Positions 3,423-27,576 of a DNA stretch of 64,000 nucleotides are shown one piece after another (position 1 is the stretch's first letter; the number at the start of each line of letters is the position of its first letter). Location of the stretch: the NCBI GenBank assembly GCA_027021705.1, contig JALUTT010000048.1, positions 64,001 to 128,000 of the forward strand, given 5' to 3'. Made by a program: the position numbers and the translations under genes. Source of the stretch: Anaerolineae bacterium (GTDB lineage: Bacteria; Chloroflexota; Anaerolineae; S140-20). The notes under the pieces are model-generated. The model saw only the letters and a list, made by a program, of their open reading frames with translations. It made no database searches and had not been told where the DNA came from.

Positions 3423-3509
3423 TGCGGTTCTCCTGGGCTTGCCAGCGTGGCGATCCGGCGGGTGGGGAGATCGCGGATTGACCCGGAGCACCGGAAGAAG
3501 GTACAGGGT

Positions 3510-5243
3510 ATGACGATGCAAGAAGAGATCCAGGAGCTGCAGGTAGAACTGGCCGCATGGCGCGAACGATTGGTTCGCGGTCTGTTGCGCGCCAGCCTGG
3601 TGGTGGGGGCTCTCGCCCTGGTCGCCGGCCTGATCAACGCCGTCACGGCTCGGGCCGTTCTGCTGGTCGTCATCTACGTGGCGGCCTACCTGGCGATGCT
3701 GGTCATCACCTTTGCCTCCCGTCTGCCCTACCTCCTGCGGGCCGGCGTCTTCCTGTTCCTCCTCTACGGGTTGGGGCTGGTGGGCCTGCTGGAAAGCGGG
3801 CTGAGCGGCGATGGACGGGTCTTCCTGCTCACCTTCCCCGTCGTGGCGACAGCCCTCCTGGGCCAGCGGGCCGGCATAGTCAGCCTGGGGCTGAGCCTGG
3901 TGACCCTGATAGGGGTGGGATGGGGGATGACCACAGGACTCCTGGACATCTCTGTGGAACAGATGGCCAACTCCACCGATCCCACCGCTTGGTTCAGCGG
4001 CAGTGTGGTCTTCTTGCTCCTGGCCCTGGCGATGCTTATCCCCACCGCTCACCTCTTGCGGGGGCAGGTCTTTGCCGCCCAGTTTGCCCGGCAGAACCGG
4101 GCCCTTCAGGAGGCCCAGGCCGCCCTTGCCGAAGTCCACCGCCAGCAGGAGGAGGCCAACGAGCGGTTGCGCCAGGCGCTGGAGGAGAGCGCACAGCGGG
4201 CTGGTCAGCTTCAGGTCATCACCGAATTGAGCCACGCCATCGCTCAGATCCGGGACCTGGATCGCCTGCTGTCGGAGGTCACCCACCTCATCGCCGATCA
4301 CCTGGGCTTCTACCACGTCGGCATCTTCCTGCTGGACGAGTCCGGTCGTTACGCGGTGCTCCAGGCAGCCAACAGTGAGGGTGGACAGCGTATGCTGGCC
4401 CGGGGGCACAAGCTGGAAGTTGGCGTTCAGGGCATCGTCGGGTACGTTACGGGGACGGGGAGACCCCGCATCGCCCTGGACGTGGGGGCCGATGCTGTCC
4501 ACTTCGATAACCCCGATCTGCCGGAGACCCGTTCGGAGGTGGCCCTGCCCCTTCGGATCGGGGAAGAGGTGATCGGGGCGTTGGATGTGCAGAGCAAAGA
4601 GACGGCGGCCTTTACCCAGATGGACGTCGTCGTCCTGCAGATGCTGGCCGATCACGTAGCCATCGCCATTGAGAATGCCCGGCTTCTCCGGCGGGTTCAG
4701 GAGGCGCTGCAGGAGGCCCGGGAGGCCCAGCGGCGCTACGTGGAGCGGGAGTGGTCGCTCTACCTCCGGCGTAGGCCCCGCCTCGAGGCCGCCTATGTGC
4801 CTATGGCCGCCCCGTCAGAGCCACCGCCGCGCACCGCTATTGAAGAAGCCCTGCGTAAAGGGGAGATGGTAGCCCTCTCGGGTGACGGTCGCCCCGCCTT
4901 CCTGGCCGTGCCCATCAAGCTGCGGGGGCAGGTCATCGGGGTCATAGACCTGCAGACAGCCGAGGAGGGCCGTCCCTGGACCGAGGATGAGATCGCGCTG
5001 GTCCGGGCCATCAGTGATCAGATGGCCTTGGCCCTGGAGAACGTGCAGCTCTTTGAGCAGACGGTGCGCCGGGCCGAGCGGGAGCATCTGGTCACCCAGA
5101 TCAGTGGGAAGATCCGCGCCTCGACCAATCTGGAGGCGATTGTGCAGACGGCTGCTCAGGAGCTGGCGCGCGCCCTGGGGACATCGCGGGTCCTGGTCCG
5201 CCTGGGGGTGGAGGAGGATGGGAAGCGGGGCATTGAGGGGTGA
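3510..5243 (+). CDS. Multi-TM membrane sensor with GAF, truncated GAF and half-GAF tail
   Basis: About 6 hydrophobic helices, then GAF GFYHVGIFLLD..TRSEVALPL..IGALDVQS. Start uncertain (GTG 3447, ATG 3510 or 3516). Confidence 0.8.
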   Translation: MTMQEEIQELQVELAAWRERLVRGLLRASLVVGALALVAGLINAVTARAVLLVVIYVAAYLAMLVITFASRLPYLLRAGVFLFLLYGLGLVGLLESGLSGDGRVFLLTFPVVATALLGQRAGIVSLGLSLVTLIGVGWGMTTGLLDISVEQMANSTDPTAWFSGSVVFLLLALAMLIPTAHLLRGQVFAAQFARQNRALQEAQAALAEVHRQQEEANERLRQALEESAQRAGQLQVITELSHAIAQIRDLDRLLSEVTHLIADHLGFYHVGIFLLDESGRYAVLQAANSEGGQRMLARGHKLEVGVQGIVGYVTGTGRPRIALDVGADAVHFDNPDLPETRSEVALPLRIGEEVIGALDVQSKETAAFTQMDVVVLQMLADHVAIAIENARLLRRVQEALQEAREAQRRYVEREWSLYLRRRPRLEAAYVPMAAPSEPPPRTAIEEALRKGEMVALSGDGRPAFLAVPIKLRGQVIGVIDLQTAEEGRPWTEDEIALVRAISDQMALALENVQLFEQTVRRAEREHLVTQISGKIRASTNLEAIVQTAAQELARALGTSRVLVRLGVEEDGKRGIEG

Positions 5244-5384: not shown

Positions 5385-6659
5385 ATGTTCCGAAGTGCCC
5401 GAACGATGAGGTTGCTGGTCGTTCTGTTCCTGCTCCTGCCTTTCGTCAGCGCTTGCCGTTCGGAACCACCGCCGCCGGCCGAGGTAACGATCGGGGTGAT
5501 CTACCCCTTCAGCGGGAGTCTGGAGGCCACAGGGGCTGACATCCGCCATGGCATCGAACTGGCCGTTGAGATCATCAACGGGGAGTTCAAGCTGGAGATG
5601 CCCCTGGCCTGGACGGCGGGCCTCCCCAACTTGCGGGGGGCGAAGGTGAAGGTCATTTACGCCGACCACGCAGGCGATCCCGACCAAGGAGTCGAGGCAG
5701 CCCGGCGGTTGATCGAGGAGGAGAAGGTGGTGGCTCTGGTGGGGTGCTACAACAGTAGCGTGACCGCTCCCGTCAGTCAGGTGGCCGAGGCGGCCAGTGT
5801 GCCCTTTTTGAACCCCGACTCCACGTCGCCCACCCTGACCCAACGGGGGTTCCGCTGGTTCTTCCGCACCACCGCCGATGATGCTATCTTCGTGCGCAAC
5901 TTTTTCGACTTCCTGGCCGATCTGCAGCAGGAGCGGGGCATAGCCCTCGGTTCGGTAGCCATCGTCTACGAGAACACCCTCTTTGGCACCGGCGTCGGGC
6001 AGTTGGAGCGCCGGTACGCCCAGGAGGCCGGACTCAAGGTCGTGGCCGATGTCCCCTACTCGGCCAACGCGACCAGCGTGGAGGCCGAGGTCCAGCGGAT
6101 CATCGCTTCCGGTGCCTCCCTGGTGATGCAGAGCTCCTACGCCCAGGATGCGATCCTGTATATGCAGACCTACAAGGCGATGGGCTACCGTCCCCAGGCG
6201 CTCCTGGCGATGGATGCCGGCTTCATCAGCCCGGTCTTCATCGAGACGCTGGGGGACGATGCCAATTACATCCTCAGCCGGGAGGTTTGGGCTCCAGACC
6301 TGGGGGAGACCCGGCCCCTGATCCGTCAGGTCAACACGCTCTTCCGGGGGCGCTACGGGACCAATATGACGGGCAACTCGGCCCGCGCCTTCACGGGCCT
6401 CATCGTCCTGGCCGATGCCATCAACCGGGCCGGCTCGACAGAACCCGAGGCTATCCGCCAGGCCCTTCTGGAGACCGACATCCCGGCCGAGCAGTTGATC
6501 ATGCCCTGGAAGGGCGTCCGTTTCGATTCCGAGACCGGTCAGAACACCCTGGCCCAGGGCATCATCGTCCAGATTCAGGACCGGGCTTACTACACCGTTT
6601 GGCCCTGGGACCTGGCAACGCGGGAGTTGATCTGGCCGATGCCCGATTGGGAGGAGTGA
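5385..6659 (+). CDS. LivJ/LivK-like amino-acid-binding lipoprotein (no permease adjacent)
   Basis: Lipobox VSAC; TIGVIYPFSG; VALVGCYNSSVT; FFRTTADD. SD-like aggaagggg upstream. Confidence 0.85.
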   Translation: MFRSARTMRLLVVLFLLLPFVSACRSEPPPPAEVTIGVIYPFSGSLEATGADIRHGIELAVEIINGEFKLEMPLAWTAGLPNLRGAKVKVIYADHAGDPDQGVEAARRLIEEEKVVALVGCYNSSVTAPVSQVAEAASVPFLNPDSTSPTLTQRGFRWFFRTTADDAIFVRNFFDFLADLQQERGIALGSVAIVYENTLFGTGVGQLERRYAQEAGLKVVADVPYSANATSVEAEVQRIIASGASLVMQSSYAQDAILYMQTYKAMGYRPQALLAMDAGFISPVFIETLGDDANYILSREVWAPDLGETRPLIRQVNTLFRGRYGTNMTGNSARAFTGLIVLADAINRAGSTEPEAIRQALLETDIPAEQLIMPWKGVRFDSETGQNTLAQGIIVQIQDRAYYTVWPWDLATRELIWPMPDWEE

Positions 6660-6662
6660 GCG

Positions 6663-8933
6663 ATGGCTGAGCGACCCGCACGATCCCGCCGCCGGCGCAG
6701 TCTGGCACGGCGACTCGCCCAGGCCCTTGTCCTGACCACGGTGCTCCCGCTGCTGGTCGTGGGCGTGATGCTGGTCCTGGTCAGCCGTAATGTCCAGATC
6801 CAACACGTGATCGCCCTCCACCAGGAGATCGCCGAGGAGGCGGCTCTCACCATCTCGTCCTACTTGGACAACGCCGAGAACGTGCTAAGCGCCTTCGCCC
6901 ACACCCACGATCTCACGGCTCTGGACCTGCCCTCTCAGCAGTCTGCCCTGGAGGAGCTTCTGTTCAGCCAGCCGGATGTGTTTGAGGACCTGGCCCTGCT
7001 GGACCGCTCCGGTCGGGAGGTAGTGCGGGTTTCGCACTTCCACACCTTCTTGCCCGATGAGTTGGAGGACCGGGCCGAGACCGAGGCCTTTCAGCAGGCC
7101 ATCAAGGGCGAGGTTTACACGGCTGGGGAAGCCTACATCTCGCCCTACAGCTCCCTGCCGGTGATGACGATGGCGGTTCCCGTCCTTTCCGAGGCAGGTG
7201 AGCCTGTTGGCGTCCTGATCGCCGAGGTCAGCCTCAAGACGATGTGGGACACCGTGGCTCGTGTCCAGGCGGGGCTGGCCGGCTATGCCTATATTGTGGA
7301 CCGGTCGGGACACATTGTGGGGCACACGCGGGTGAGCCGCTACTTCCGGCTTCAAGAACGGGACCTGACCTTCATCCCGCTGGTCCGGGATCTGGTGGAG
7401 GGTCGGGAGCCGGTATCTCACCTCTACAAGGGGCTGGAGGGCGAGCGGGTCATCGGGGTTCTGGCACCCATTGAGGGTACCAATTGGGCGGTCGTCGTCG
7501 AGGTCCCCACCCGTGAGGCTTTCGCCAGCCTGCGGCGTATGGTCTACCTGTTCATCGGCACCCTGGTGGTAGCAGCGTTGATGGCCGGTGGGTTGGGGCT
7601 TCTGCTGCCCCGGCGCATCATCCGCCCACTCCGCCTGCTGCAGGAGGGCGCTGCGGCCATTGGGGCCGGACGGCTGGAGCACGTCATCCAAGTGCGGACC
7701 AACGACGAGCTAGAGGACCTGGCCGAGGCCTTCAACACGATGGCGGCCCGGCTGCAGGAGAGTCGGGCCCAACTGGAGCGCTGGGGCCAGGAGTTGGAAC
7801 GGCAGGTAGAGGAGCGGACGGCCGAACTGGCCGAGGCCTCGGAGCGCCTCCACCGCCGCGCCGACCAGCTTCAGGCCATCGCCGAGGTCGGGCGTGCCAT
7901 CACCCTGGTCAGTGACCTGGACCAGATGCTCACCCAGATCACCCAACGCATCAGCGAGCGCTTTGGCTTCTACCACGTGGGAATTTTCCTGCTAGACGAG
8001 GTGGGAGAGTACGCCATCTTGCGGGCGGCGAATAGCGAGGGGGGGCAACGGATGCTGGCCCGGGGGCACCGGCTGAAGGTGGGCGAGAAGGGCATCGTGG
8101 GCTACGTTACCAGCACTGGCGAGCCTCGTATCGCCCTCGATGTCGGTGAGGATGCCGTCTGGTTCGACAACCCAGACCTGCCCCTCACCCGCTCCGAGTT
8201 GGCCCTGCCCCTAAGGGTGGGTGGCGAGATCATTGGGGCCTTGGACGTGCAGAGCACCGAGGAGGCCGCGTTCACCGAGGAAGATGTCGCCGTGCTCAGC
8301 ATGCTGGCCGACCAGGTGGCCGTCGCCATCCAGAATGCCCGCCTGCTCGCCCGCACTCAGCAGGCCCTGGCCGAGGTGGAGGAGACCCATCGCCAGTACC
8401 TGCAGCGGGAGTGGCGGGAGATCACAGCCCAGCGCGGACCGTTGGTCTACGAGTACACCCGCGCCGGGACGCCTCCTGTGAGGGAAACCCTCCTTCCCGA
8501 GATGAAGCGGGCGATGGAGGAGGGCGAGGTCGTTGCCGTGCCCATCTCCGATGGGGATGGTGGGGATGGGGCGACCGCGGGATCGGCCTTGGCCGTCCCC
8601 ATCAAACTGCGAGGGCAGGTCATCGGTGTGATAGACCTGCAGGAGATTGGAGATGGTCGGCAGTGGACGGAGGAGGAGATCGCCCTCGTGCAAGCCATTA
8701 GCGATCAGATGGCCCTGGCAGCGGAAAACGTCCGCCTGTTGGAGGAGACGGAACGCCGTGCTGTGTGGGAGCATCAGGTCCAGGCGATCACCTCCAAGAT
8801 CCGCCGTTCGCCCGATCTGGCGACCATTCTCCAGACGGCAGTGGAAGAGTTGGGGCGGGTCCTGAGAGCCGACCGAGCCCTCGTTCGTCTGAGAGTAGAG
8901 ACTCCAGAGACGGACCAAGAGCTGGAGGAGTGA
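6663..8933 (+). CDS. TM, dCache, TM, HAMP, GAF, truncated GAF, half-GAF tail sensor
   Basis: Cache-like motifs YISPYSSLPVMTMAVPV and GYAYIVDRSGHIVGH; HAMP DELEDLAEAFNTM; conserved GAF AANSEGGQRMLARGH. Confidence 0.85.
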   Translation: MAERPARSRRRRSLARRLAQALVLTTVLPLLVVGVMLVLVSRNVQIQHVIALHQEIAEEAALTISSYLDNAENVLSAFAHTHDLTALDLPSQQSALEELLFSQPDVFEDLALLDRSGREVVRVSHFHTFLPDELEDRAETEAFQQAIKGEVYTAGEAYISPYSSLPVMTMAVPVLSEAGEPVGVLIAEVSLKTMWDTVARVQAGLAGYAYIVDRSGHIVGHTRVSRYFRLQERDLTFIPLVRDLVEGREPVSHLYKGLEGERVIGVLAPIEGTNWAVVVEVPTREAFASLRRMVYLFIGTLVVAALMAGGLGLLLPRRIIRPLRLLQEGAAAIGAGRLEHVIQVRTNDELEDLAEAFNTMAARLQESRAQLERWGQELERQVEERTAELAEASERLHRRADQLQAIAEVGRAITLVSDLDQMLTQITQRISERFGFYHVGIFLLDEVGEYAILRAANSEGGQRMLARGHRLKVGEKGIVGYVTSTGEPRIALDVGEDAVWFDNPDLPLTRSELALPLRVGGEIIGALDVQSTEEAAFTEEDVAVLSMLADQVAVAIQNARLLARTQQALAEVEETHRQYLQREWREITAQRGPLVYEYTRAGTPPVRETLLPEMKRAMEEGEVVAVPISDGDGGDGATAGSALAVPIKLRGQVIGVIDLQEIGDGRQWTEEEIALVQAISDQMALAAENVRLLEETERRAVWEHQVQAITSKIRRSPDLATILQTAVEELGRVLRADRALVRLRVETPETDQELEE

Positions 8934-9890
8934 GTGGTGTCTTCCTCGCTTACCTGGGAAGCTTTTGCTCGGATGCCTTTGCCGGAAGTTGCGACGCTGG
9001 TCGGTCAGAGGCTGCGCAGCCTTCTGGTCGTCGCCGATGGCACGCAGCGCTGGTTCGTCTGCGAGAAGAAGTCGGGTAATGTCTTGTCCCAGACCTACTG
9101 GAGCGAGTACATGGAGGTGGTCAGCCGCCAGTATGCTGCCTTGCTGCACCTCCTTTTCACCCACGGCGTTCCTACCATCTTCGAGCCGCTGGTGATGCCC
9201 GTGGGGCGGAGCGAGGAGGAACTGAAGCGAGGGCTGGCCAACCTACCGCGCATTGTGGCCGACAAACCGTTCCGAGAGCTTTACGAGGAACTGGACATCC
9301 GGGTTCGCTTCTACGGCCCTTGGATGTCACTTCTGGAGGAGGTGGGACGACCGGACTTATGGGAGGTCTTGAACCGTCTGACCGAGGAAACGGCTCATCA
9401 CTGGCGTCACCGGCTCTTCTGGGGGATCTACATACCGGGGATCTCTCCCCAAGAAGAGATGGTCCGCTTCACGGTGGAGCGGGCTCGATCTGGGGCGGGG
9501 TCTGTGAGCCGAGAACAGTTGGTGGTTGCCTATTACGGTGAGCCTGTTGAACCTGTGGAAGTCGCGATCCTGTTGGCGGGACAGCCCCGGGCTGCCAGCT
9601 ATCTTCCCCCCTTTCTGGGGGATGATGCCGACTTTTACTTCACCGTCAACTCCCCGCTGGGGATGGACGCGCTGCAGTTGCGGGCCATCCTTTACGACAA
9701 GCTGTTCGCCCGTCGAGAGGCGGCCCGAGAGTACACGCGCCTCTCCCCCCAGGGGTTGGCGGAGATCCGTGAACTTTACGAACAGAATAGAGGGCACACG
9801 CTGGGCATAGGCCGCTGGTCGGAAACGGGTCAGTTCTGGTACCCGCTCCCTCAGGTGAACCTCCCTCCCACGCTCATGCCGGGGACGTAG
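8934..9890 (+). CDS. Rv3378c-like diterpenyl transferase/diterpene synthase (cis-prenyltransferase fold)
   Basis: Collinear motifs match Rv3378c as recalled: DGTQRWF (DGTRRWF), LFTHGVPTIF (LFEHGIETVI), VRFYG, HRLFWG, YYGEPV (YYGEYV), FYFTV (LYFTV), LRAILYD (LRRILYD). Confidence 0.85.
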   Translation: MVSSSLTWEAFARMPLPEVATLVGQRLRSLLVVADGTQRWFVCEKKSGNVLSQTYWSEYMEVVSRQYAALLHLLFTHGVPTIFEPLVMPVGRSEEELKRGLANLPRIVADKPFRELYEELDIRVRFYGPWMSLLEEVGRPDLWEVLNRLTEETAHHWRHRLFWGIYIPGISPQEEMVRFTVERARSGAGSVSREQLVVAYYGEPVEPVEVAILLAGQPRAASYLPPFLGDDADFYFTVNSPLGMDALQLRAILYDKLFARREAAREYTRLSPQGLAEIRELYEQNRGHTLGIGRWSETGQFWYPLPQVNLPPTLMPGT

Positions 9891-9960
9891 GAGGTAGGTG
9901 GCGGGGCGCAAGGGGCTAGTTGCAAGTTGCAAGGAGTAGGTGGCAAGTCGGGGGCGGGAG
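9891..9960 (+). repeat. Degenerate heptamer tandem repeat
   Basis: agttgca-agttgca-aggagta-ggtggca-agtcggg run between the two terpene genes. Confidence 0.45.
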
Positions 9961-10013
9961 CCCCATGAGTTGTCGTTTTGCCGGGAGTTGTACAACAAAA
10001 GGAGGCGCGGAAA

Positions 10014-11543
10014 ATGGCACGGATAGACCTCGTTGCGGAAGCGGAGGCGTTGCTCAAGGCGATGGACATGGGGGATATGGGACCCTCAATCTACGATGCG
10101 GCTTGGGTGGCCCGTCTGAAGGACCCGGGGAGTGGAGAACCGCTCTTCCCGGGGGTTCTGGAATGGATTCGCCAGTCCCAGCATCCCGATGGGAGCTGGG
10201 GGAGCGAAGTCGAGTACTACCCGGATCGGATTATCTCGACGCTGGCGGCCCTCGTAGCCTTGATGGAGCACAGCCCGCGCGCGGGGAATGGTCGGGCAAT
10301 TGGGCGAGGGCTGGCTTATCTGGAGAAGACGTGGCCGTTGGTTCAGGGGGTTCCCCATCTCACTGTGGGATTTGAGGTCATTGTCCCCACCTTGTTGGAG
10401 GAAGGGGGGCGGCTGGGATTACCTTTGAACGGCTGGATGACGGAGGCGCAGCGGATGCGTCTCGAGCGGTTGCGGCGGATACCGCCAACGATGATCTACT
10501 CGCCTAAAAGCACCATCTCCTTCTCGCTGGAGTTCTTGGGAGATTACCTGGATGTCGCTCGGGCGAGGGAAACTCTGTTGTTGCCCAATGGTTCCATTGC
10601 CAATGCGGTTGCCAGCACTGCTTACTTTGCCGCTCGAACTTACGAGGAGAAGACGCTGATTTATCTTGACCATCTGCTTTCTGCTCAGGGGGAGCACAAT
10701 GTTCCCTTTGTGCATCCCTTCGAAGTCTTCGAGCGGAACTGGGTGCTTTACAATCTTCATTTGGCTGGACTATTGGACCAGGTGGTCCATGCTGCTCGTC
10801 CCCACCTAATGTATCTTTACAAGGCTTGGGAGGAGGACGGCTTGAGTTTCTCTGCTGAGTGCCCGTTAAAGGATTTGGACGATACTGCGATAGGCTACTT
10901 GCTCCTGAAGTCTTATGGCTTCGATGTTGATGCTCAAGCGTTTGCTCTTTACGAGAGGGATGATTTCTTTGAATGTTATCCTTTTGAAATGCACACAAGC
11001 GTGGGCACCAATGCGCATACTCTCCACGCATTAACAGTTTTCCCTCGTAAGCAGCAAGAGGAGGTTAAGGCTAAAGTCTTCTCTTACCTTCAGTCTCAGA
11101 AGGTACAAGGAGCATATTGGTTTGACAAGTGGCATGTTTCACCTTACTATGCGACTGCTCAGGTGATCTTTGCGGTTGTCTTGCTCGAGAGGGAGTGGGT
11201 TGAGGATAGTATTCTCTGGATTGAAAGTACTCAGCGCTTGGATGGGGGATGGGGGTTCTATGGGGTATCTACGGTGGAAGAAACAGCACTGGCTTTGCAG
11301 GGGCTCTTGGCCTATGCTAATGCTGGTGGGAATGTGGCGTCGGAGGTGATCCATCGGGGTGCTTCTTTCCTTCACCGAGCTTTGGAAACCGATGCGAGAT
11401 TACCGGCGCTCTGGATTGGAAAAGGGTTGTATCGTCCTATTCATATCATTCGTTCTTCTATCCTTAGCGCTTTAGCAATGTATGAAGCTTGGTGTCCAAG
11501 GAGTCAGAAGCTGGTTGGAGGCTCAGCCTTTTCACAGGTGTGA
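10014..11543 (+). CDS. Class II diterpene cyclase (Rv3377c/copalyl-diphosphate-synthase-like)
   Basis: SIYDAAWVARL; QW-like repeats QHPDGSWG and QRLDGGWG; catalytic DxDD motif DLDDTA; WFDKWHVSPYYAT; EETALAL; LWIGKGLY. SD aaggagg before ATG 10014. Confidence 0.9.
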   Translation: MARIDLVAEAEALLKAMDMGDMGPSIYDAAWVARLKDPGSGEPLFPGVLEWIRQSQHPDGSWGSEVEYYPDRIISTLAALVALMEHSPRAGNGRAIGRGLAYLEKTWPLVQGVPHLTVGFEVIVPTLLEEGGRLGLPLNGWMTEAQRMRLERLRRIPPTMIYSPKSTISFSLEFLGDYLDVARARETLLLPNGSIANAVASTAYFAARTYEEKTLIYLDHLLSAQGEHNVPFVHPFEVFERNWVLYNLHLAGLLDQVVHAARPHLMYLYKAWEEDGLSFSAECPLKDLDDTAIGYLLLKSYGFDVDAQAFALYERDDFFECYPFEMHTSVGTNAHTLHALTVFPRKQQEEVKAKVFSYLQSQKVQGAYWFDKWHVSPYYATAQVIFAVVLLEREWVEDSILWIESTQRLDGGWGFYGVSTVEETALALQGLLAYANAGGNVASEVIHRGASFLHRALETDARLPALWIGKGLYRPIHIIRSSILSALAMYEAWCPRSQKLVGGSAFSQV

Positions 11544-11561
11544 GCATAGGAGAACCAGAAT

Positions 11562-14500
11562 ATGAGGGAGAGATTAGTAGAAGCGCTAACGGTCCAACCA
11601 GATGACCTGTTGCGGATCCGGCCATTGCTGGAAGTTATGCTTAAAGGGTTAATTGTGGCTACAGCGGCAGGTACGGTGGTTTTCGTTGGGGCTGCCGTGA
11701 TAGGTCAGCGTGGGTTCTGGGTGCTCAGCGGGCTTAACCTGCTTATGCTGATCGTGATGATTGGCATAGGGAGGCTGAACCAGCGAGGGCATACCAATGC
11801 GGCCATCCATACTCTGCTAGCAGTGATTACCCTTTACGTCACTGTAGCATCACCGCCGGGTTTCCTAGTGGCTGGACCGGAGCTAGCAGTCTATGCCGTA
11901 CCGATTACTGCTGCGGGGTTGCTGCTTACACCAGCGGCTGCGGGCTTCTGGGCGGTGATCACCACGATAGCCGCCTTGGCTCGCATGATAGTAGTCACCC
12001 TGTTCCTCGATGTGGTGGTCAGTCCCATAGCCCTCACCCTAGGGGTCATCGTGCTTTATTTGCTGGCCCTCTCCACCTGGCTCTTCGCCCGTTCCCTTCA
12101 GCAGGCCAACCGGAACCTGCGCCGGCGGATCGGGCAGATCCAGACGGGGGCCGAGATCAGCCGGGTGGTCACGGCAGCCCTCGAGCCCGGCCTGATCCAA
12201 TGGCCGGCCGTCCAGTTGATCCAGACCGGCTTCGGTTACTACCACGTCGGCTTCTACGTCCTCGACCCTGAAGGGCGTTGGGCCGTCCTCACGGAGGCGG
12301 CCGGCGAAGCTGCCGATCGTATGAAGCAGGAAGAGCATCGCCTGCCCTTGGACGGCTCTACCGTCGTCGCCGCCGCCTTCGCCCAACGGGCCCGCCAGAT
12401 GCTCGTCCTCGGCGAGGAAGGGCCATACAGCCCCAACGGACGCCCTCTTCAGCCCAACGATCGCTTCCTACCCCAGACCCGGGCGGAGTTGGCGCTGCCC
12501 CTCCAGGTGGGGGAGCGGCTCCTGGGCGTGCTGGATGTGCACAGCACCCAGCCTCTCCCCTTCCCCGACGAGGAGATCGAGGCCCTGGAGGGCATCGTGG
12601 GGCAGGTCGCCGTGGCCCTGGAGAATGCCCACCTCTTCGAGGACCTTCACCAACGCCACCAGGAGCTGCGGGAACTCCATCAGCAGACGGAGCGCCGGGC
12701 TCGCTACCTGGAGGCTACCGCCGAGTTGGCCCGGGCGGTCAGTTCGCTGCTCGATCTGCAAGCTCTGCTGGATCGGGCGGTTAACCTCATCAGCGAGCGG
12801 TTCGGCTTCTACCACGCCGGTATCTTCCTGGTGGACGAGGCCGGCGAGTGGGCCGTGCTCCAGGCGGCCAACAGCGAGGGCGGACAGCGTATGTTGGCCC
12901 GGGGGCACAAGCTGCGCGTGGGTGAGCAAGGCATCGTCGGCTGGGTCACCCACGCCGGAGAACCCCGCATTGCCCTGGACGTGGGTGAGGATGCCGTTCA
13001 CTTCGACAATCCCGACCTGCCCAACACCCGCTCGGAGATGGCTCTCCCCCTCAGGGTGGGAGACCGGGTGATCGGAGCCCTGGACATCCAGAGCACCCGA
13101 GAGGCCGCCTTCAGCGAGGAAGACGTGGCGGTCCTCCAGACTTTGGCCGACCAGATCGCCATCGCTATCGAGAATGCCCGCCTCTTCCAAGAGACCCAGA
13201 GGGCCCTGGAGGAGGTGCAGACCCTGCACCGCTACTACCTGGCCCAGGCGTGGGAGCAGTTCACCCGGCAGCGCAGAGACCTCAGCGCGGAATACCGCCG
13301 CCTGGGCGTGCCCCCTCTGGAGAGAGCGTGGTCTCCCGAAATGGAGATAGCCCTGGCTCAGGAGCGCCCTGTGGTCTTGACAGACCTGGAAGCGGAGCTA
13401 CTGGGCGGGGATGGACAGGAGGGGAATCGGGACGACGGAACCGATGGTCGCTCTGCGCTGCCGGCCCGTTCTGTCCTAGCCGTCCCCATCAAGCTGCGCG
13501 GCGAGGTAATCGGTGTCCTGGACTTGCAGGCGACAGAGGAGTCCCGCCGCTGGACCGACGAAGAGGTGGCGATGGTCGCCGCCGTGGCCGACCAGATGGC
13601 CCTGGCTCTGGAGAACGCCCGGCTTCTGGAGGCCGAGCGGGATCAGCGCCAAGTCTCCGAAGCGCTGCGGGAGGCCGCCGTGGCCCTGAGCAGCACCCTG
13701 GAGTTCGACGATCTGGTCCAACGCATCCTGGAGCAGATCAGCCGGGTCGTCCCCGGCGATGCCAGCAACCTGATGCTCATCGAGGGAGACGAGGTGCGGG
13801 TCGTGGGGCGCCGGGGTTACGAGCACTTCCAGTTTGTGGACCTCCTGCGTGAGCGCCGGGTTCCTCGGGATACCCTCAACACCCTGCGCAAGATGGCAGA
13901 GACAGGCCGTCCCGTCGTCATCCCGGACACGGCTTCCGATCCCGACTGGCGTCTCCTACCCGGTTCGGAGTGGATCCGCTCTTACGTGGGAGCGCCCATC
14001 CAGGTTCGGGGGGAGATCATCGGCCTCCTGAACGTGGATAGTGCGACACCGGGCTTTTTCACCCAGGAGCACGCTGACCGACTGGCGGCTTTCGCTGCCC
14101 AGGCAGGCATCGCCCTTCAGAACGCCCGGCTCTTCGAAGAGACCCGACGACACGCCCGTGAGGTCCGCCAGCTCTACCAGTTGGGTATGGCCCTTAGCGC
14201 CACCCTGGACCTGGAAGAAGCGCTCCAGACGGTGGCCGATGGGGCTCGGGAACTCCTCGAGGCGTCCAGCGCGGCGGTCTACTACTGGGATGAAGGGACG
14301 CAGCGTTACACCTACCGCTTTAGCCTGGGGGAGACTCACCTCGATGCCGAGGGCCTTTTCCAGGAACCCCGCCCCGGTGGGATGACCGAGACGATCCATC
14401 GTACGGGCGAGCCTGTCCTGGTCGAAGACGTCCGTCTGGATCCCCGGGTTGCCTCTCACGTCGTAGAGGCGGGGGTCCGCTCCTTCGTCGGCGTCCCCAT

Positions 14501-16373
14501 CCAGGTGGGCGGGCGTCGCATCGGTGTGGTCTTCGCCAATGGAGAGCAGCCCGGTCAGTTTGGCGAGCACGAGCAGAACCTGCTCACCTTCCTGGCCAGC
14601 CAGGCGGCCATCGCCTTGCAAAATGCCCGTCTCTTCGAGGAAGTCCAGACCCGCGCCCGCCACGAGCACGCCTTGCGCGAGATCACCGCGGTCATCAACA
14701 CCAGCGAGAGTTTGGTGGAGGAACTCCCCGTCATCGCCGGACACCTCCGGCAGTTGGTGCCCGTGGACACCCTCGCCCTGACCATCTACGTACCGGGGGA
14801 GTCCGAGTACACCCTCTTCGCCGTGGAGGTGAGCGGGGAAAGGACTCCCTTTGCCCAGAGGGGTGCCCGACTCCCGGTAGAGGGCACCGGCCCTGGGTGG
14901 GTCCTCACCCACGGCGAGCCGTGGATAGACGACGATCTCCGCCAGCAGCTTTCCTTTGTCGAGGATGAGCACGTCCTTGCCCAGGGATTGCGCTCCCGGG
15001 CGATCCTTCCCCTCCGGGTCGGCGAACGGGTCATCGGCACCCTCAACCTTGCCAGCACCCAGCCCGGGGTGTTTACCGAAACCGATCTTCCTCCCCTGCG
15101 GCTGATCGCCGGTCAGATGGCCCTGGCCCTGGAGCGGGTCCGCCTCTTCGAGGAGACTCAGCAGCGGGCCCGAGATCTGGACAAGCTCTACCAGGCGACG
15201 CGGGTCATCAGCACTGAACTGGACTTGGAGCCGCTGGCGGAGAAGCTGGCAGAAGAGGCTCGGAATCTGGTGGAGGCCCATTACAGCGGCATCCTGATCT
15301 TCCATCCCAATCCGGACCAGCCGGTCTATTTCAAGACGGCCGGCGTGGACCTCGATCGCTTCCAGTTGTCGGGTCGGCCCGAGGGCAAAGGGGTGTTGGC
15401 CGCCATCCTCGAGGGGGAGGCGGTCCGGCTGGACGACATCTCGAAGCACCCCCGTTCCGTCGGTCTGCCGCCGGAGCACTTCCCCCTCAAGCGGCTGTTG
15501 GGCTTGCCTATCGTCTACCACGGTCAGGTGCGGGGCATCTTGTTGGCAGGACGTGATGCCAATGGTGCTCCTTTCACCGAGGCGGACTTCTCCTTGCTCC
15601 AGGCTCTGGCAGCTTCGGCGGCCGTCGCCGTGGAGAATGCTCGGCTCTTCCTCAAGACCCAGGAGGCGTTGGCGGAGACGGAGGTTCTCTACCGGGCCAG
15701 CCGGGCCATCGCTGTGGCCCAGACGCCCGAGGACGTGTTGCGGGCCTTCACCGATCACATCGTCACACCGGAGATTGGCCGTTGCGTCCTGGCCCTGATA
15801 GATCCTGGCAGCCCGCCGGACCAACGGGAAGTAGAGATCGTCGCTGCGTGGGAGCCGGGGGTGGAACGACCGGCTGTGGTTGGAAACCGCTGGAACGCTT
15901 CTCAGATCCCCTTAATAGACCGGATCGGCCAGGATCCTCTGGTCATCTCCGACGTGGAGACCGCCTCAGAGATGGACGAGGTCTCCCGCCACATCTTCCT
16001 AGACATCCTGGGGATTAGGGCGTTCATCGCCATCCCCATGCTGGTCGGTGAGCGGCTGCTGGGCTGGCTGCTGGTCGAATCCCTGGAGGGGCCTTACGAG
16101 TTCAGCGAGCGGGAGAGGCGGCTCTACGAGGCCCTGGCCGGACAGGCTGCCGTCGCTCTGGAGCGCCAGCGTCTCTTCGAAGAGGCTCAGAGGCGGGCTC
16201 GCCGCGAGCGGCTGATCCGGGAGATCACCACCAAGGTGCGTGCCGCCACCGATGTGGACACGATCCTGCAGACCGCCCTTCAGGAGATCAGCCAGGCGTT
16301 AGGGACCACCCACGCGGCGATCCGCTTGGGAGTCCAAAGCCCAGAGTTTGGAAATGGAGGCTCGGAGAGGTAG
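11562..16373 (+). CDS. Large membrane sensor: ~6 TM plus 8 GAF units (one truncated) and half-GAF tail; no output domain
   Basis: Hydrophobic N-terminus, eight repeats ending in ENARLF-like motifs, C-terminus ITTKVRAATDVDTILQTALQEISQALGTTHAAIRL. Confidence 0.88.
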   Translation: MRERLVEALTVQPDDLLRIRPLLEVMLKGLIVATAAGTVVFVGAAVIGQRGFWVLSGLNLLMLIVMIGIGRLNQRGHTNAAIHTLLAVITLYVTVASPPGFLVAGPELAVYAVPITAAGLLLTPAAAGFWAVITTIAALARMIVVTLFLDVVVSPIALTLGVIVLYLLALSTWLFARSLQQANRNLRRRIGQIQTGAEISRVVTAALEPGLIQWPAVQLIQTGFGYYHVGFYVLDPEGRWAVLTEAAGEAADRMKQEEHRLPLDGSTVVAAAFAQRARQMLVLGEEGPYSPNGRPLQPNDRFLPQTRAELALPLQVGERLLGVLDVHSTQPLPFPDEEIEALEGIVGQVAVALENAHLFEDLHQRHQELRELHQQTERRARYLEATAELARAVSSLLDLQALLDRAVNLISERFGFYHAGIFLVDEAGEWAVLQAANSEGGQRMLARGHKLRVGEQGIVGWVTHAGEPRIALDVGEDAVHFDNPDLPNTRSEMALPLRVGDRVIGALDIQSTREAAFSEEDVAVLQTLADQIAIAIENARLFQETQRALEEVQTLHRYYLAQAWEQFTRQRRDLSAEYRRLGVPPLERAWSPEMEIALAQERPVVLTDLEAELLGGDGQEGNRDDGTDGRSALPARSVLAVPIKLRGEVIGVLDLQATEESRRWTDEEVAMVAAVADQMALALENARLLEAERDQRQVSEALREAAVALSSTLEFDDLVQRILEQISRVVPGDASNLMLIEGDEVRVVGRRGYEHFQFVDLLRERRVPRDTLNTLRKMAETGRPVVIPDTASDPDWRLLPGSEWIRSYVGAPIQVRGEIIGLLNVDSATPGFFTQEHADRLAAFAAQAGIALQNARLFEETRRHAREVRQLYQLGMALSATLDLEEALQTVADGARELLEASSAAVYYWDEGTQRYTYRFSLGETHLDAEGLFQEPRPGGMTETIHRTGEPVLVEDVRLDPRVASHVVEAGVRSFVGVPIQVGGRRIGVVFANGEQPGQFGEHEQNLLTFLASQAAIALQNARLFEEVQTRARHEHALREITAVINTSESLVEELPVIAGHLRQLVPVDTLALTIYVPGESEYTLFAVEVSGERTPFAQRGARLPVEGTGPGWVLTHGEPWIDDDLRQQLSFVEDEHVLAQGLRSRAILPLRVGERVIGTLNLASTQPGVFTETDLPPLRLIAGQMALALERVRLFEETQQRARDLDKLYQATRVISTELDLEPLAEKLAEEARNLVEAHYSGILIFHPNPDQPVYFKTAGVDLDRFQLSGRPEGKGVLAAILEGEAVRLDDISKHPRSVGLPPEHFPLKRLLGLPIVYHGQVRGILLAGRDANGAPFTEADFSLLQALAASAAVAVENARLFLKTQEALAETEVLYRASRAIAVAQTPEDVLRAFTDHIVTPEIGRCVLALIDPGSPPDQREVEIVAAWEPGVERPAVVGNRWNASQIPLIDRIGQDPLVISDVETASEMDEVSRHIFLDILGIRAFIAIPMLVGERLLGWLLVESLEGPYEFSERERRLYEALAGQAAVALERQRLFEEAQRRARRERLIREITTKVRAATDVDTILQTALQEISQALGTTHAAIRLGVQSPEFGNGGSER

Positions 16374-16454
16374 TCCCGGAGTCCTCGTCCTGGTGTGGTG
16401 AGCCGAGGACAAGAGTAGGAAGTTCAGAGTTCTGAGGTACAGGTGAGGGGAAAA

Positions 16455-19400
16455 ATGGCCGACTCAACCCACTCAGCCCACCCACAAGACCTCCTCGACC
16501 GGCTCCTGTCCATCGTCGCTGGGATAGACGAGGGGGAGCAGCGTGAGGCCCTGCAGCAGCCGTTGGAGGCGCTGCGGAAGGCGCTTGCCGTCTCCTCGGA
16601 TCGGAGCCGTCGCCTCTACGAGGCCAGTCGGGCGATCAGCCTGGCCGCCGATATGGCTGAGGTGGGACGGGCTCTGATGGACTTCATCGCGACCTGTGAC
16701 GTGGATGTGGGCCGGCTCTTTCTCTTCCGGGCGGATCCGTCTGGTGAGCCGGTTGAGATCGAGATGCGCGAGGGATGGAAGCGGAGCGGTGAGCCCTCTC
16801 AGGTTCCCTACGGCACCCGTTTCCCGCTGGCCGATTACCCTCTGCGTGAGGCTATGCAGCCTGACCAGGTCTTCATCTGCTCCGATGTGGGGACGGATCC
16901 CCGGTTGAATGAGACCATCCGGGCGATGATGCTCGCCTCCGAACTGCACTCCTTCATCATCGTCCCGATGACGGTGGAGAGGCGGTGGTTGGGTGCCATT
17001 CTCGTAGGACGGGAGGTCCCCTCCACGTATGATGAAGGGTTGGTCTACGCCCTCTGGACGCTGGCCGGACAGGCTGCGGCCACGCTGGAGAACCGCCAGC
17101 TCCTGGCCGACTTCCAAGGAACAGCCGAGCAGATGGTCCTGCTCAACCAAATCCTCCAGACGGCTACGACGACCCTAGACCTCCGGGAGGCCCTCGATTC
17201 CATTGCCCGACAGACGGCCCTGGCGCTGAACAGGATGTGCGGCATCTTTCTTCTCGAGGAAGATGGCGAGCACCTGCGGGTGGGCTGCTTGTGGGGACCC
17301 GATGGCCATACCCACACGTCTGAGGAGGCCCTCGTCTTCCCTCTCTCAGAGAATCCCGGTATGGAGGCAGCCGTTCGGGAGCAGAAGACCCAGGTCCTTG
17401 ACCAGGTTCAGACCCGTGCCCGGGGAACAGCCCGCCACCTGGCCCAACTCTCCCGGGCGGAGACGGCCGTCTACGCCCCCTTGCTGACCCGAGAGCGTGT
17501 GGTGGGGGTGCTGGAGGTCTCCGCCCCCGTCGGCCATCCCCCCTTCACGCCGGAGCAGATCGGCACGGTCTCCACCATTGCCCGCCAGATGGGTATCGTG
17601 GTGCAGAATGCTCGACTCTTCCAGGAAACCCAGGCCGCTCTGGAGGAGACAGACCTGCTCCTGGAGACCAGCCGGGCCCTGGCCCTCGCCCTGACCCCCC
17701 AGGAGGTGGCCGATCTCCTGGCAGAGCGCTTGATGGCCACAGGCGTTGACCGTTGTAGCGTGGTTCTCTGCGATACCTACGGAGAGGATGGGCTCCCTCA
17801 GTGGGCGGAGGTGATGGCCATCGGCGACGTGGACCCGGAGAGGCGAAAGCTGGGCCTGCACTACCGCTATCCCATCGAAACCTACCCTACGATACAGAAG
17901 TTCCTCCGTGCTCCAGAAGCCTTCGTGGTGACCGATGTGCGCACCGATCCCCGCCTCACCGAGGAGGAGCGAATCTATATGGAAAATATCGGGGGGGTGG
18001 CTTTCATCGCCGTCCCGATGGTGCGCCGGGGACAGGTCCTGGGCTACATCTTCGCCGAACACAGCCATCCCTATACCTTCAGTCAGCGGGAGCTTTCCCT
18101 GTACCAGGCGATGGCCGATCAGGCAGCCGTGACGCTGGCCAACATGCGTCTCTTCGAGCGGGTTCAGCAAGGGTGGCGCGAGACCGAGGTCCTCTATCAG
18201 GTTGGCCGCTCCTTGGTCGCTGCCTCTTCCTTGGAGGAACTGCTGGAGTGTGCGGCCCAACCGGCCATCGAGGCAGGGGCGTCGGCCGCCAGCCTCTACC
18301 TCTTCGACCCGAATGAGGCGGAGCAACCGGAGTGGGGCATCCTGGCCGCCCACTGGCAGCGCGAGGGTGATCCTCCCTTCCCCGTGGGTACTCGGCTCTA
18401 CTTGGCCGATTTCCCCTTCACCCAGCTCTTCCTGGCGGATCCCCAGACCCCTTACCTGATCGGGGATATGGAGGCGGCCGAGCAGGTGGATGAGACTACC
18501 CGGGATGTGGCCCTGCAACTGGGGGTGCGAGCGCTGGTTGTCATCCCCTTGGTGACCCGGGAGCGTCGGATTGGTATCCTGGCCATTCCCTGGGATGAGC
18601 CCCACCAATTCAGTGAGGAAGAGGAGCGGCTCTATCGGGCGCTGGGACCGTTGGCAGCGCCGGTCACGGAGAGCTTGCGCCTACTGGAGGACACACGGCG
18701 TCGGGCACTCCAGTTCCAGACCGTGACGGAGGTTGCCCAGGCGGCCAGTACCATCCTGAACCTGGATGAGTTGCTCTCCCAGTCGGTGGAGTTGATCAGG
18801 GAGCGCTTTGACCTCTACTATGCCGGTATCTTCCTGGTGGATGAATACGGGCAGTGGGCGGTGCTGCGGGCGGGCACCGGCGAGGCCGGCCGGGCGCAGA
18901 TCGAGGCCGGTCACCGGCTGGAGGTGGGGGGCAACTCGATGATCGGCTGGTGCACGGCCCACGGAAAGCCCCGGGTAGCCCTAGACGTGGGGAAGGAGGC
19001 CGTGCGCTTTGAGAACCCCTACCTGCCCGATACCCGCTCGGAGATGGCCCTGCCCCTCATCAGCCGGGGGCAGGTGATCGGTGCGATGACCATCCAGTCC
19101 ACCCAGGTCGCTGCCTTCACCGACGAGGATGTCACAATCCTCCAGGCTCTGGCCGACCAGTTGGCCGCGGCCATTCAGAATGCCCGTCTCTTCGAGCAGA
19201 CCCAGCAGGCCCTGCAGGAGGTCAGCCGGGTTCACCAGCGTTACATCCGTGAGGCCTGGGAGGAGTACACAGCCCATCGTCAGCGTCCGACAGGCTACTT
19301 CCTGGGCCCCGACGGCATCACGGCTGCCGACGTCTGGCGACCGGAGATGGCCTTGGCGGTGGAGCGGGAGGACCTGCTGATCCTCTCCGAGGCCGACGAC

Positions 19401-24244: not shown

Positions 24245-24300
24245 CCCCGCCGAGGTGGGAAAGGATAGCATCGTTGTGCTTCCACCCCGCCGAGGTGGGA
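24245..24300 (+). repeat. 16-bp direct repeat x2 (ccccgccgaggtggga)
   Basis: Exact copies at 24245-24260 and 24285-24300 in the kinase/PLP-enzyme intergenic region. Confidence 0.8.
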
Positions 24301-24362
24301 TCTACCGGCAACTGGACCTTATCCCCCAAAAGTGCGCGCGGAAGGAAGGAGTCAAAGAAGCC

Positions 24363-27573: not shown

Positions 27574-27576
27574 ACG

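Follow-up and report, generated by a model that had tools for sequence, protein, structure and literature searches.

A diterpene synthase pair encoded beside a six-helix membrane sensor domain in Anaerolineae: a candidate synthase-receptor cassette

We analyzed a stretch of 64,000 nucleotides from an Anaerolineae bacterium (Chloroflexota; GenBank assembly GCA_027021705.1, contig JALUTT010000048.1, positions 64,001 to 128,000 of the forward strand), hereafter called the window, in which two neighboring genes encode a homolog of the Mycobacterium tuberculosis protein Rv3378c (here TBS) and a class II diterpene cyclase of the Rv3377c type, followed by a gene whose product starts with a six-helix membrane (6TM) domain. 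Comparison of sequences from many genomes indicates that these three parts, the Rv3378c-like enzyme, the cyclase and the 6TM domain, are conserved together in class Anaerolineae, and they very probably form one functional module, whatever its logic. The data directly support the homology of the enzymes and their intact catalytic residues, the conserved order and co-occurrence of the genes, the modelled fold of the 6TM domain, and an allele cassette that differs between strains and takes in the catalytic part of the cyclase along with the 6TM domain. Our tentative reading, to which we give a little less than an even chance, is that the cells make a diterpenoid (or diterpenyl nucleoside) and detect it themselves in the membrane through the 6TM domain, so that the module would be a synthase-receptor cassette. 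The core features are the following (positions are those of the window):

8934..9890, + strand: Rv3378c-family enzyme (cis-prenyltransferase-like diterpene synthase or prenyl transferase), 318 aa, GTG start, TBS of the window (P0001); PDB match
10014..11543, + strand: class II diterpene cyclase of the Rv3377c (MtHPS) subfamily, 509 aa from ATG 10014 (P0002); match to PDB 6vpt_A
10872..10883, + strand: DLDD catalytic-acid motif (canonically DxDD; DCDT in M. tuberculosis); alignment and sequence
11562..12125, + strand: 6TM domain, without a Pfam family; profile, AlphaFold2 model and VIA search
11562..16373, + strand: 6TM-(GAF)x8 protein, 1603 aa; eight GAF stretches in Pfam, transmembrane segments
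10540..12060: polymorphic allele cassette with low GC content at third codon positions (GC3), spanning the cyclase from its second third onward, with DLDD and the base Tyr, and almost all of the 6TM domain; GC, GC3 and contig breaks

An earlier note on this DNA, made from the sequence alone, had named an Rv3378c-like gene starting directly after the stop of a dCache-GAF sensor gene, a class II cyclase with an intact DxDD motif, and the lack of a geranylgeranyl diphosphate (GGPP) synthase in the window, and all of these observations were borne out. The GTG start of TBS at 8934 directly follows the TGA stop (8931-8933) of a dCache_1-HAMP-GAF-GAF gene. The open reading frame (ORF) of TBS (8934-9890) was matched by no Pfam or NCBIfam family; its residues 9-294 align with residues 7-286 of Rv3378c in four distinct PDB chain sequences (3wqk, 3wqm, 3wqn and 4kt8) at phmmer E-values of 5.5e-23 to 2.9e-22, with 3wqk_A at E 6.1e-23. 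When aligned with 103 full-length members of the Rv3378c family taken from the representative search described below, P0001 retains 24 of the 27 columns conserved in at least 80% of the members; the three departures are E96 (Tyr in 84%), V191 (Pro in 93%) and S240 (Pro in 82%). D35, R39 and Y59 of P0001 align with D34, R38 and Y51 of Rv3378c, which, together with Y90, we take to be functional residues. At the Y90 position Glu (E96) is found in P0001 and in its 92%-identical relative P0004, and Tyr in P0005. By these alignments TBS belongs to the Rv3378c family, whose members are a diterpene synthase or tuberculosinyl transferase of the cis-prenyltransferase fold.

The cyclase ORF is open from TTG 9978, but translation probably begins at ATG 10014, which is preceded at a distance of 8 nt by AGGAGG (10000-10005). 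Its residues 32-502 match PDB 6vpt_A (E 1.3e-66), the halimadienyl diphosphate synthase of M. tuberculosis (MtHPS; PMC9585517), and Pfam reports SQHop_cyclase_C (2e-16). The next-best PDB chains are a plant labdadienyl diphosphate synthase (8e-48), with plant class II or bifunctional enzymes weaker from there on, and the bacterial ent-CPS 5bp8 (3.4e-34); judged by these scores, Rv3377c is the nearest to it of the class II cyclases with a solved structure. The PDB E-values of TBS (6e-23) and of the cyclase (1e-66) are far beyond chance. The following residues of P0002 are numbered from the TTG start, with equivalences from the 6vpt_A alignment and roles from PMC9585517:

DLDD (nt 10872-10883): D293-C-D295-T296 of MtHPS, catalytic acid motif
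H347: H341 of MtHPS, activates the acid
Y334: Y328 of MtHPS, secondary Tyr
DKW 383-385: (D/E)KW, conserved motif
Y485: Y479 of MtHPS, catalytic base
Gly: at the position of A475 of MtHPS

The catalytic Asp, the His that activates it and the Tyr acting as base, as described for MtHPS (PMC9585517), are thus all present in the window cyclase. The A475 position is reported to be Gly in 58.7% of the subfamily (PMC9814783); in MtHPS, single substitutions alter the product, and Y479F switches it (PMC9585517). Both enzyme genes look functional from their sequences. The window holds no polyprenyl synthase: PF00348 matches in the genome are found only on two other contigs, C120 and C156, and one of these two proteins looks long-chain, the other short-chain (best model GGPP synthase IdsB, 264.6 bits, below the cut-off).

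A word-based search found 12 TBS homologs, several of which carry the JGI names 'tuberculosinol/isotuberculosinol synthase' or 'adenosine tuberculosinyltransferase', and a profile search of 1.84 billion representatives yielded 455 TBS-family proteins at E<=1e-3, 156 of them at E<=1e-30. For the analysis of gene order one genome per species was scanned, which gave 90 confirmed loci, and the best 80 were kept. All 80 come from metagenome-assembled genomes of Chloroflexota, mostly labelled Anaerolineae; the peptide patterns of the scan favor Chloroflexota, and other phyla are possible. A class II cyclase was found by tblastn with the window cyclase in 69 of the 80 loci, its start usually lying within ~150 nt after the Rv3378c-like gene, and P0020 (803 aa) and P0024 (828 aa) are single polypeptides in which TBS and cyclase are fused. 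In the flanks of the 80 loci, tblastn with the two polyprenyl synthases of the window's genome found no polyprenyl synthase. The pair itself is partly known in Chloroflexota from published work: the similarity cluster of Rv3377c has been described as 'terrabacterial' and often neighboring Rv3378c homologs (PMC9814783), and Chloroflexota are reported to dominate the bacterial groups around Rv3377c (bioRxiv 10.1101/2025.02.07.637177). A study from 2024 states that a search for Rv3377c/Rv3378c orthologs outside mycobacteria failed (PMC11476799). We found no report of a sensor linkage of the pair in open-access text, subscription journals and supplements lying outside that search.

The ORFs of the 80 loci were called crudely (longest non-overlapping ORFs of at least 90 aa) and clustered. 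The commonest neighbor, present in 62 loci, is a protein of ~567 aa encoded directly after the cyclase, with PAS, HisKA and HATPase_c domains in Pfam and no assignment for residues 1-210; a single REC protein of 126 aa comes next after this kinase in 38 of the 80 loci. Independently of the gene calls, the linkage to the 6TM domain was counted in a six-frame scan with a profile of 39 kinase N-termini. Thirteen loci end too soon after the pair and 67 could be assessed: in 54 of them a 6TM ORF starts at most 300 nt downstream of the pair, and in nine it starts 0.8-2 kb downstream with one gene between (sulfotransferase, methyltransferase, transposase, geranylgeranyl-reductase-like (GGR-like) enzyme, radical-SAM/B12 enzyme, flavin monooxygenase, or one without assignment), which makes 63 of 67 within 2 kb downstream. 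In one more locus (L006), the cyclase and the 6TM ORF are transcribed divergently from TBS, and 64 of 67 loci are sensor-linked in all. Nine loci without a detectable class II cyclase still have TBS followed by the 6TM kinase, in four of them with another gene between. The tightest link is therefore that of the Rv3378c-like enzyme with the sensor, since cyclase-less loci keep both TBS and the 6TM kinase. The four intervening genes (L053:9878-11080, L038:1851-3416, L077:3369-4958 and L064:11012-12112) encode a GGR-like flavoenzyme, a B12/radical-SAM enzyme, a flavin monooxygenase and a 366-aa protein without assignment; this suggests different prenyl substrates for one transferase-sensor core.

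For co-occurrence we counted matches at E<=1e-10 in 301 genomes sampled evenly from the class, each at least 80% complete. TBS is present in 34 of these genomes, 25 with and nine without the 6TM domain; 14 genomes have the 6TM domain only and 253 have neither. The 6TM profile used here included the rows of the window and of G005 (a genome from another family of the class, see below), and these two match by construction. In the 25 genomes with both, the two genes are at most 5 kb apart on one contig in 17 cases, 8-12 kb apart in two, and on separate contigs of fragmented assemblies in six.

The 6TM domain comprises ~190 residues with about six hydrophobic helices and forms the N-terminus both of the canonical kinase and of the 6TM-(GAF)8 protein of the window. 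A profile built only from the 39 canonical kinase N-termini matches residues 3-188 of the window protein (profile positions 8-188; E 1.7e-17) and the counterpart in G005 (E 7e-8), and none of the MASE11, MFS and ABC-permease proteins in the set matched it better than E 0.1. The alignment has in common a PI..A..LL.P..A segment and a helix end SWL(S/A)ARSL. Pfam searches with three 6TM N-termini at E<=0.1 returned spurious sub-threshold matches only, and precomputed Pfam results for the 120 relatives listed held nothing for the 6TM region save a spurious TM_PetC in three. The family comprises at least 209 protein clusters, which bear only generic names, and occurs in the architectures 6TM-PAS-kinase, 6TM-kinase and 6TM-PAS-kinase-REC. 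An AlphaFold2 model made from a 23-row alignment (pLDDT 88.9, pTM 0.80) has six long helices, the last of which runs on as a cytoplasmic helix. An exhaustive structure search with VIA-align over 48,161 chains, with a query of 200 residues, gave these matches:

6r3q_A, adenylyl cyclase 9 (AC9): Z 14.3, 177/200 residues aligned
8wcn_B, ImcA: Z 13.4, 184/200
8sl3_A, adenylyl cyclase 5 (AC5): Z 12.4, 184/200
7yzi_A, Rv1625c/Cya: Z 12.1, 148/200
next match, a designed nanocage: Z 8.8, 152 aligned

In each of the top four the matched part is the 6TM membrane domain, at a sequence identity of 10-14%. The modelled fold suggestively resembles the membrane domains of class III adenylyl cyclases, a likeness that may reflect homology or convergence. 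As in AC9, AC5, Rv1625c/Cya and ImcA, the last helix of the bundle runs into a cytoplasmic signalling helix; unlike in the class III cyclases, the output is a histidine kinase or GAF domains, and there is no detectable sequence similarity. A receptor role has been proposed for the 6TM anchors of cyclases (PMC4821796, PMC12414865), with later work arguing that they are lipid receptors, and the anchor of Rv1625c is reported to be replaceable by the 6TM quorum-sensing receptor CqsS, yielding a ligand-regulated enzyme (PMC4821796). Upstream in the same genome, at G000:C48:54829-55272 (L094:10652-12361), the N-terminus of a 569-aa GAF protein of the array described below also matches the 6TM profile, though weakly (E 2e-8).

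The cyclase and the 6TM domain of the window are further joined by an unusual composition. Between ~10500 and 11850 GC drops from ~0.65 to 0.46-0.52, and between 10540 and ~11900 GC3 drops from 0.64-0.90 (about 0.75) to 0.40-0.64 (about 0.5), TBS and the 5' third of the cyclase having the GC3 of the host. We compared this segment, at the level of contigs and hence blind to rare variants, with Logan contigs of three metagenome runs, X1, which is possibly the source sample, and X2 and X3 from another study. In X1 one contig ends at 10540, one spans 10511-12090 and one restarts at 12061, with overlaps of 30 nt and depths of 73.8, 60.2 and 74.4. In X2 and X3 the main contigs (depth 17.8 and 13.5) follow the left flank with ~1% differences and are then of the same length and diverged from 10639 and 10540, respectively; other main contigs (depth 22 and 13.3) match the window again from 12061 and 12019, and pieces identical to the window across the segment have a depth of only 2-10. 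Hence at least two alleles of 10540-12060 coexist. The cassette extends from about residue 176 of the cyclase to its end, including DLDD and the base Tyr, and over residues 1 to ~160 of the 6TM protein. A scan of metagenome contigs with P0001 for the second allele returned the source contig alone, and no donor of the cassette was found, both halves of the cyclase being 37-46% identical to every cyclase compared.

A comparable break in the cyclase is seen in an independent pair of related loci: between L079 and L081 identity is 84% for TBS, 93% for cyclase residues 1-165, 51% for the rest of the cyclase, 72% for the 6TM domain and 85% for the rest of the kinase. More generally, no part is less conserved than the 6TM domain in any of the 38 locus pairs whose TBS identity is at least 70%; for example, L039 and L040 are 81% identical in TBS, 92% and 88% in the two parts of the cyclase, 57% in the 6TM domain and 83% in the PAS-kinase part.

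In the window the module is embedded in a co-directional array of ~43 kb, which begins ~17 kb upstream of the window and comprises G000:C48:47212-64000 (L094) and positions 13-26027 of the window. The array encodes 12 GAF proteins with 41 GAF domains, as counted with a profile built for this analysis, and the last GAF protein ends at 24242. The input modules are dCache, HAMP, PAS, MASE11, periplasmic-binding types and 6TM, mostly followed by GAF-GAF without an output domain; the array has only two kinases, one at each end, as well as a ParA-like ATPase and a PALP-REC protein. The features of the array that lie in the window, apart from the core, are:

13..1698, 1695..3422 and 3447..5243, + strand: three co-directional sensor-GAF genes, HAMP-GAF, PAS-GAF and MASE11-GAF, respectively; Pfam
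5385..6659, + strand: periplasmic binding protein Peripla_BP_6; Pfam E 3e-56
6663..8933, + strand: dCache_1-HAMP-GAF-GAF sensor without output domain; Pfam
9891..10013: TBS-cyclase spacer with the GTTGCAAG direct repeat and the ribosome-binding site of the cyclase, AGGAGG 10000-10005; sequence
16443..24242, + strand: hybrid kinase, 2599 aa, with 11-12 GAF, HisKA, HATPase_c and two REC domains; Pfam and the GAF profile built for this analysis
24255..26027, + strand: PALP (threonine-synthase-like) enzyme with REC at its C-terminus, perhaps an output of the array; Pfam

The core of the hybrid kinase is 36-49% identical to the canonical 6TM kinases. The arrangement of about ten sensor-GAF proteins facing a hub kinase with 11-12 GAF domains invites the idea of GAF-GAF docking.

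GAF-rich flanks were found in only two of the 83 loci scanned with the GAF profile of this analysis, the window and G005, that is, in one of the 82 other loci. In G005 the pair sits between HAMP-GAF and 6TM-GAF genes, in the order HAMP-GAF-HisKA, PBP-GAF, NMT1, HAMP-GAF, TBS, cyclase, 6TM-GAF, dCache_3-HAMP-GAF, GAF and MASE11-GAF; what look like fragments of a canonical copy are also present in this genome. In a tree of TBS sequences the 75 canonical ones form one clade (SH-aLRT 99), and the window clade (P0001, P0004, P0005) and G005 fall outside it. Constraining the window clade and G005 to group together is not rejected by the approximately unbiased test (p-AU 0.81, log-likelihood 24.5 higher), in a comparison that involves long branches and a group named after the tree had been seen. 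The GAF-embedded version is thus a second, old lineage of the module, more than a one-off. Vertical inheritance of the GAF layout within the window's own family was considered and dropped, as two members of that family, G001 and G002, carry the canonical non-GAF form.

Upstream of the pair the canonical loci are less regular than in the downstream kinase, and several kinds of genes recur, including an MFS transporter and the following:

ICMT/PEMT-type methyltransferase, often directly upstream of TBS: 27/80 loci
FemAB/GNAT-like protein: 34/80 loci
GT87-like membrane protein: 30/80 loci
ABC ATPase: 34/80 loci
MacB-type permease (exporter): 17/80 loci

In the window no tailoring or export gene adjoins the pair, the neighbors assigned by Pfam being sensor-GAF proteins, the periplasmic binding protein, the hybrid kinase and the PALP-REC protein.

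The nearest known system is that of M. tuberculosis, in which Rv3377c (halimadienyl diphosphate synthase) and Rv3378c (tuberculosinyl transferase) make 1-tuberculosinyladenosine (1-TbAd); the same two families stand side by side there, with similarity over the full length. The window pair differs in its identity of only ~30-37%, in having DLDD where M. tuberculosis has DCDT, and in the Glu at the Y90 position of Rv3378c; moreover, the M. tuberculosis locus is described as constitutive and largely unregulated (PMC11476799), whereas the Anaerolineae pair is tied to a sensor. The second relative lies in the same phylum. Haur_2145-2147 of Herpetosiphon aurantiacus reportedly encode a kolavenyl diphosphate synthase, a kolavelool synthase and an O-methyltransferase. 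This is likewise a Chloroflexota class II cyclase with an Rv3378c homolog, the likeness being one of description and not of sequence, and its methyltransferase recalls the ICMT/PEMT-type gene of the Anaerolineae loci, none of which adjoins the pair in the window. Haur_2145 has been placed in another similarity cluster than Rv3377c (PMC9814783).

In its organization the module resembles CqsA/CqsS and LqsA/LqsS, where the synthase of a lipophilic autoinducer accompanies a 6TM sensor kinase, and agrBDCA: a synthase is encoded beside a receptor kinase with a polytopic membrane domain and a response regulator. Instead of the separate single-REC gene of the canonical loci, the window has REC domains as parts of the hybrid kinase and of PALP-REC. 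The hypervariable stretch of agr covers the 3' part of the synthase gene, the signal gene and the 5' half of the receptor gene, and the divergent cassette of the window, the 3' two-thirds of the cyclase with the 6TM domain, is similar in this respect. Unlike cqs, lqs and agr, to which it has no sequence relation, the module would act through a diterpenoid ligand, and we know of no diterpenoids that serve as bacterial autoinducers.

If the three parts work as a synthase and receptor, GGPP would come from a short-chain prenyl synthase encoded elsewhere. The cyclase would protonate it through DLDD to form a bicyclic C20 diphosphate, for which the Tyr retained at the Y479 position of MtHPS would favor a halimadienyl-type product. 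The Rv3378c-like enzyme would then exchange the diphosphate for water, giving a diterpenol, or for a nucleoside, giving a terpene nucleoside, either being possible from the sequence. The lipophilic product may enter the membrane directly, or be released and re-enter it, and would be read there by the 6TM domain, which in most genomes would signal through the PAS-HisKA-HATPase kinase to a response regulator of one domain. Fused to eight GAF domains, the 6TM domain of the window would feed the 41-GAF array ending in the hybrid kinase with its two REC domains and PALP-REC. Both the identity of the product and its role as the 6TM ligand are what we infer from these data.

The chief alternative is regulation only: the diterpenoid would serve some separate purpose, such as that of a lipid in the membrane or envelope, of a terpene nucleoside acting as an antacid, or of an O-methyl diterpenol resembling an antibiotic, and the 6TM kinase would sense another cue, for example membrane fluidity or thickness as DesK does, and adjust production or a linked response, the product not being its ligand. 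Gene linkage fits plain regulation equally well, leaving the ligand role of the product putative, and regulators are commonly encoded inside metabolite clusters. In most relatives the pair has beside it tailoring and export genes of the kind that secondary-metabolite clusters typically contain, so the earlier note's remark that such genes are missing holds for the window as a local feature and fails as a property of the system. Furthermore, 14 of the 39 genomes with the 6TM domain lack TBS. On the other side, regulation alone leaves unexplained the strain-level joint swap of the catalytic part of the cyclase and the sensor domain, as well as the joining of TBS to the 6TM kinase where the cyclase is missing or another enzyme lies between, and the response regulator has no DNA-binding domain for the control of transcription. 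We consider regulation only somewhat unlikely.

Several further observations weigh, like those just named, against a synthase-receptor cassette. Nine of the 34 genomes with TBS lack the 6TM domain, and 6TM-GAF proteins without TBS nearby occur in G301 and G072; the related genomes in such counts are not independent samples, and the gene calls are crude. Three of the 67 assessable loci (L026, L067 and L059) have no 6TM domain: in L067 the kinase is present without its 6TM part, in L059 there is neither kinase nor 6TM domain, and in L026 (745-3168; the same DNA as G002:C269, L091) the cyclase is fused in frame to HisKA-HATPase_c in a protein of 807 aa without 6TM or PAS, followed by REC, which is either a genuine fusion or the result of a deletion or an assembly error. 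In the canonical loci the response regulator consists of a REC domain alone, without a known output. The E96 of P0001, a Glu where Rv3378c (Y90) and 84% of the family carry Tyr, may leave its chemistry altered or impaired; its family membership by homology stands. The other allele of the cassette is known only as 'diverged' stretches of contigs, and co-variation of enzyme and receptor remains putative, while relaxed constraint on a membrane domain, instead of diversifying selection, could explain part of the fast divergence of the 6TM domain. As to its fold, Foldseek against PDB gave no match at E<=1e-3 (best E 0.46), and Z-scores near 13 in helical bundles can arise from a common arrangement alone.

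Two other explanations concern the surroundings of the pair. The earlier note had taken the placement among receptors, with no tailoring or export genes adjacent, as a sign that the product is a signal (autoinducer or second messenger) for the GAF system; in that version the terpenoid or terpene nucleoside would be a small messenger molecule to which the array's GAF domains bind. GAF domains are binders of small molecules, the pair lies inside a 41-GAF array, and G005 repeats this layout, so the recurrence of the pair in GAF clusters that the note had asked about does exist, in one of the 82 other loci only. The linkage to a sensor is not unique to this genome, being found in 64 of the 67 assessable loci of other species. 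The conserved partner, however, is the 6TM domain and not GAF, the usual output being PAS-HisKA-HATPase with REC and no GAF, and a C20 lipid is likelier in the membrane than in the cytoplasm. A second messenger for the GAF system has no specific support here, a membrane lipid sensed by the 6TM domain fits better, and we regard binding by the GAF array as improbable. The pair could also be a passenger inserted by horizontal transfer, or the contig a chimera, with no functional tie. The local anomaly of GC and GC3, the breaks of the X1 contigs at both edges of the segment and the canonical form in G001 and G002 would agree with this, whereas the in-frame fusion of the 6TM domain to eight GAF domains, the 30-nt overlaps of the X1 pieces at comparable depth (60 vs 74), the exact window-type pieces across the segment in the runs of the second study, the similar embedding in G005, and the host-like GC3 of TBS and of the 5' third of the cyclase speak against it, and such an origin is highly improbable.

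A synthase-receptor cassette can be extended to a wider picture, in which Anaerolineae have a family of diterpenoid cell-cell or self-signalling systems: a strain-specific 'pherotype' terpenoid, made by an Rv3378c-type enzyme mostly together with a class II cyclase, would be read by a new adenylyl-cyclase-like 6TM receptor, the product-determining part of the cyclase and the receptor would be swapped together by recombination as in agr groups, the receptor would have been wired into the 41-GAF array in the window lineage, and the 1-TbAd genes of mycobacteria would be a side branch, lacking the receptor, of an ancient signalling module of environmental bacteria. Taken as a whole, this picture is unlikely.

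What is known of the Rv3377c/Rv3378c pair has so far concerned almost exclusively its making of a virulence lipid in M. tuberculosis. If the terpenoid is indeed the ligand, the module would be the first diterpenoid signal-receptor pair in bacteria, and the 6TM fold common with membrane adenylyl cyclases would gain a natural case in which the synthase of the ligand is encoded beside the receptor; the ligand-sensing role of the 6TM domains of these cyclases is still debated, and such a pairing would open this question to a direct test. Should the kinase do no more than regulate the pathway, the 6TM domain still constitutes a new family of sensor domains. The module also gives a way to approach what cyclic diterpenoids do in a major uncultured lineage. 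Among its members are Chloroflexota that live with sponges and have been proposed as bacteria that might produce the cyclic diterpenoids of sponges (bioRxiv 10.1101/2025.02.07.637177; PMC7180734).

A few minor observations concern the loci themselves. Rfam gave no family at gathering score in window positions 5000-27000, the TBS-cyclase spacer included, and scans for promoters and terminators gave nothing beyond the expectation from shuffled sequence. The GTTGCAAG direct repeat of the spacer lies at 9904-9934, where in run X1 three separate 31-nt contigs map with two differences each and varied depth, a hint of small-scale variation or of a repeat found elsewhere. In an Anaerolinea-like group (L029, L034, L036, L039, L041, L043, L051, L063, L065, L067 and L080) a PfkB kinase, one or two inosine-uridine nucleoside hydrolases and an ECF transporter are encoded upstream of TBS, a block of interest if the transferase uses a nucleoside. 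The PALP-REC protein encoded directly 3' of the hybrid kinase, which NCBIfam matches as threonine synthase with 262 bits, under the model cut-off, is an unusual enzyme-type response regulator. Just past the array, positions 26221-28818 form a stretch of lower GC with a likely restriction-modification pair, a fragment match to N6_N4 DNA methylase and a BsoBI-like endonuclease.

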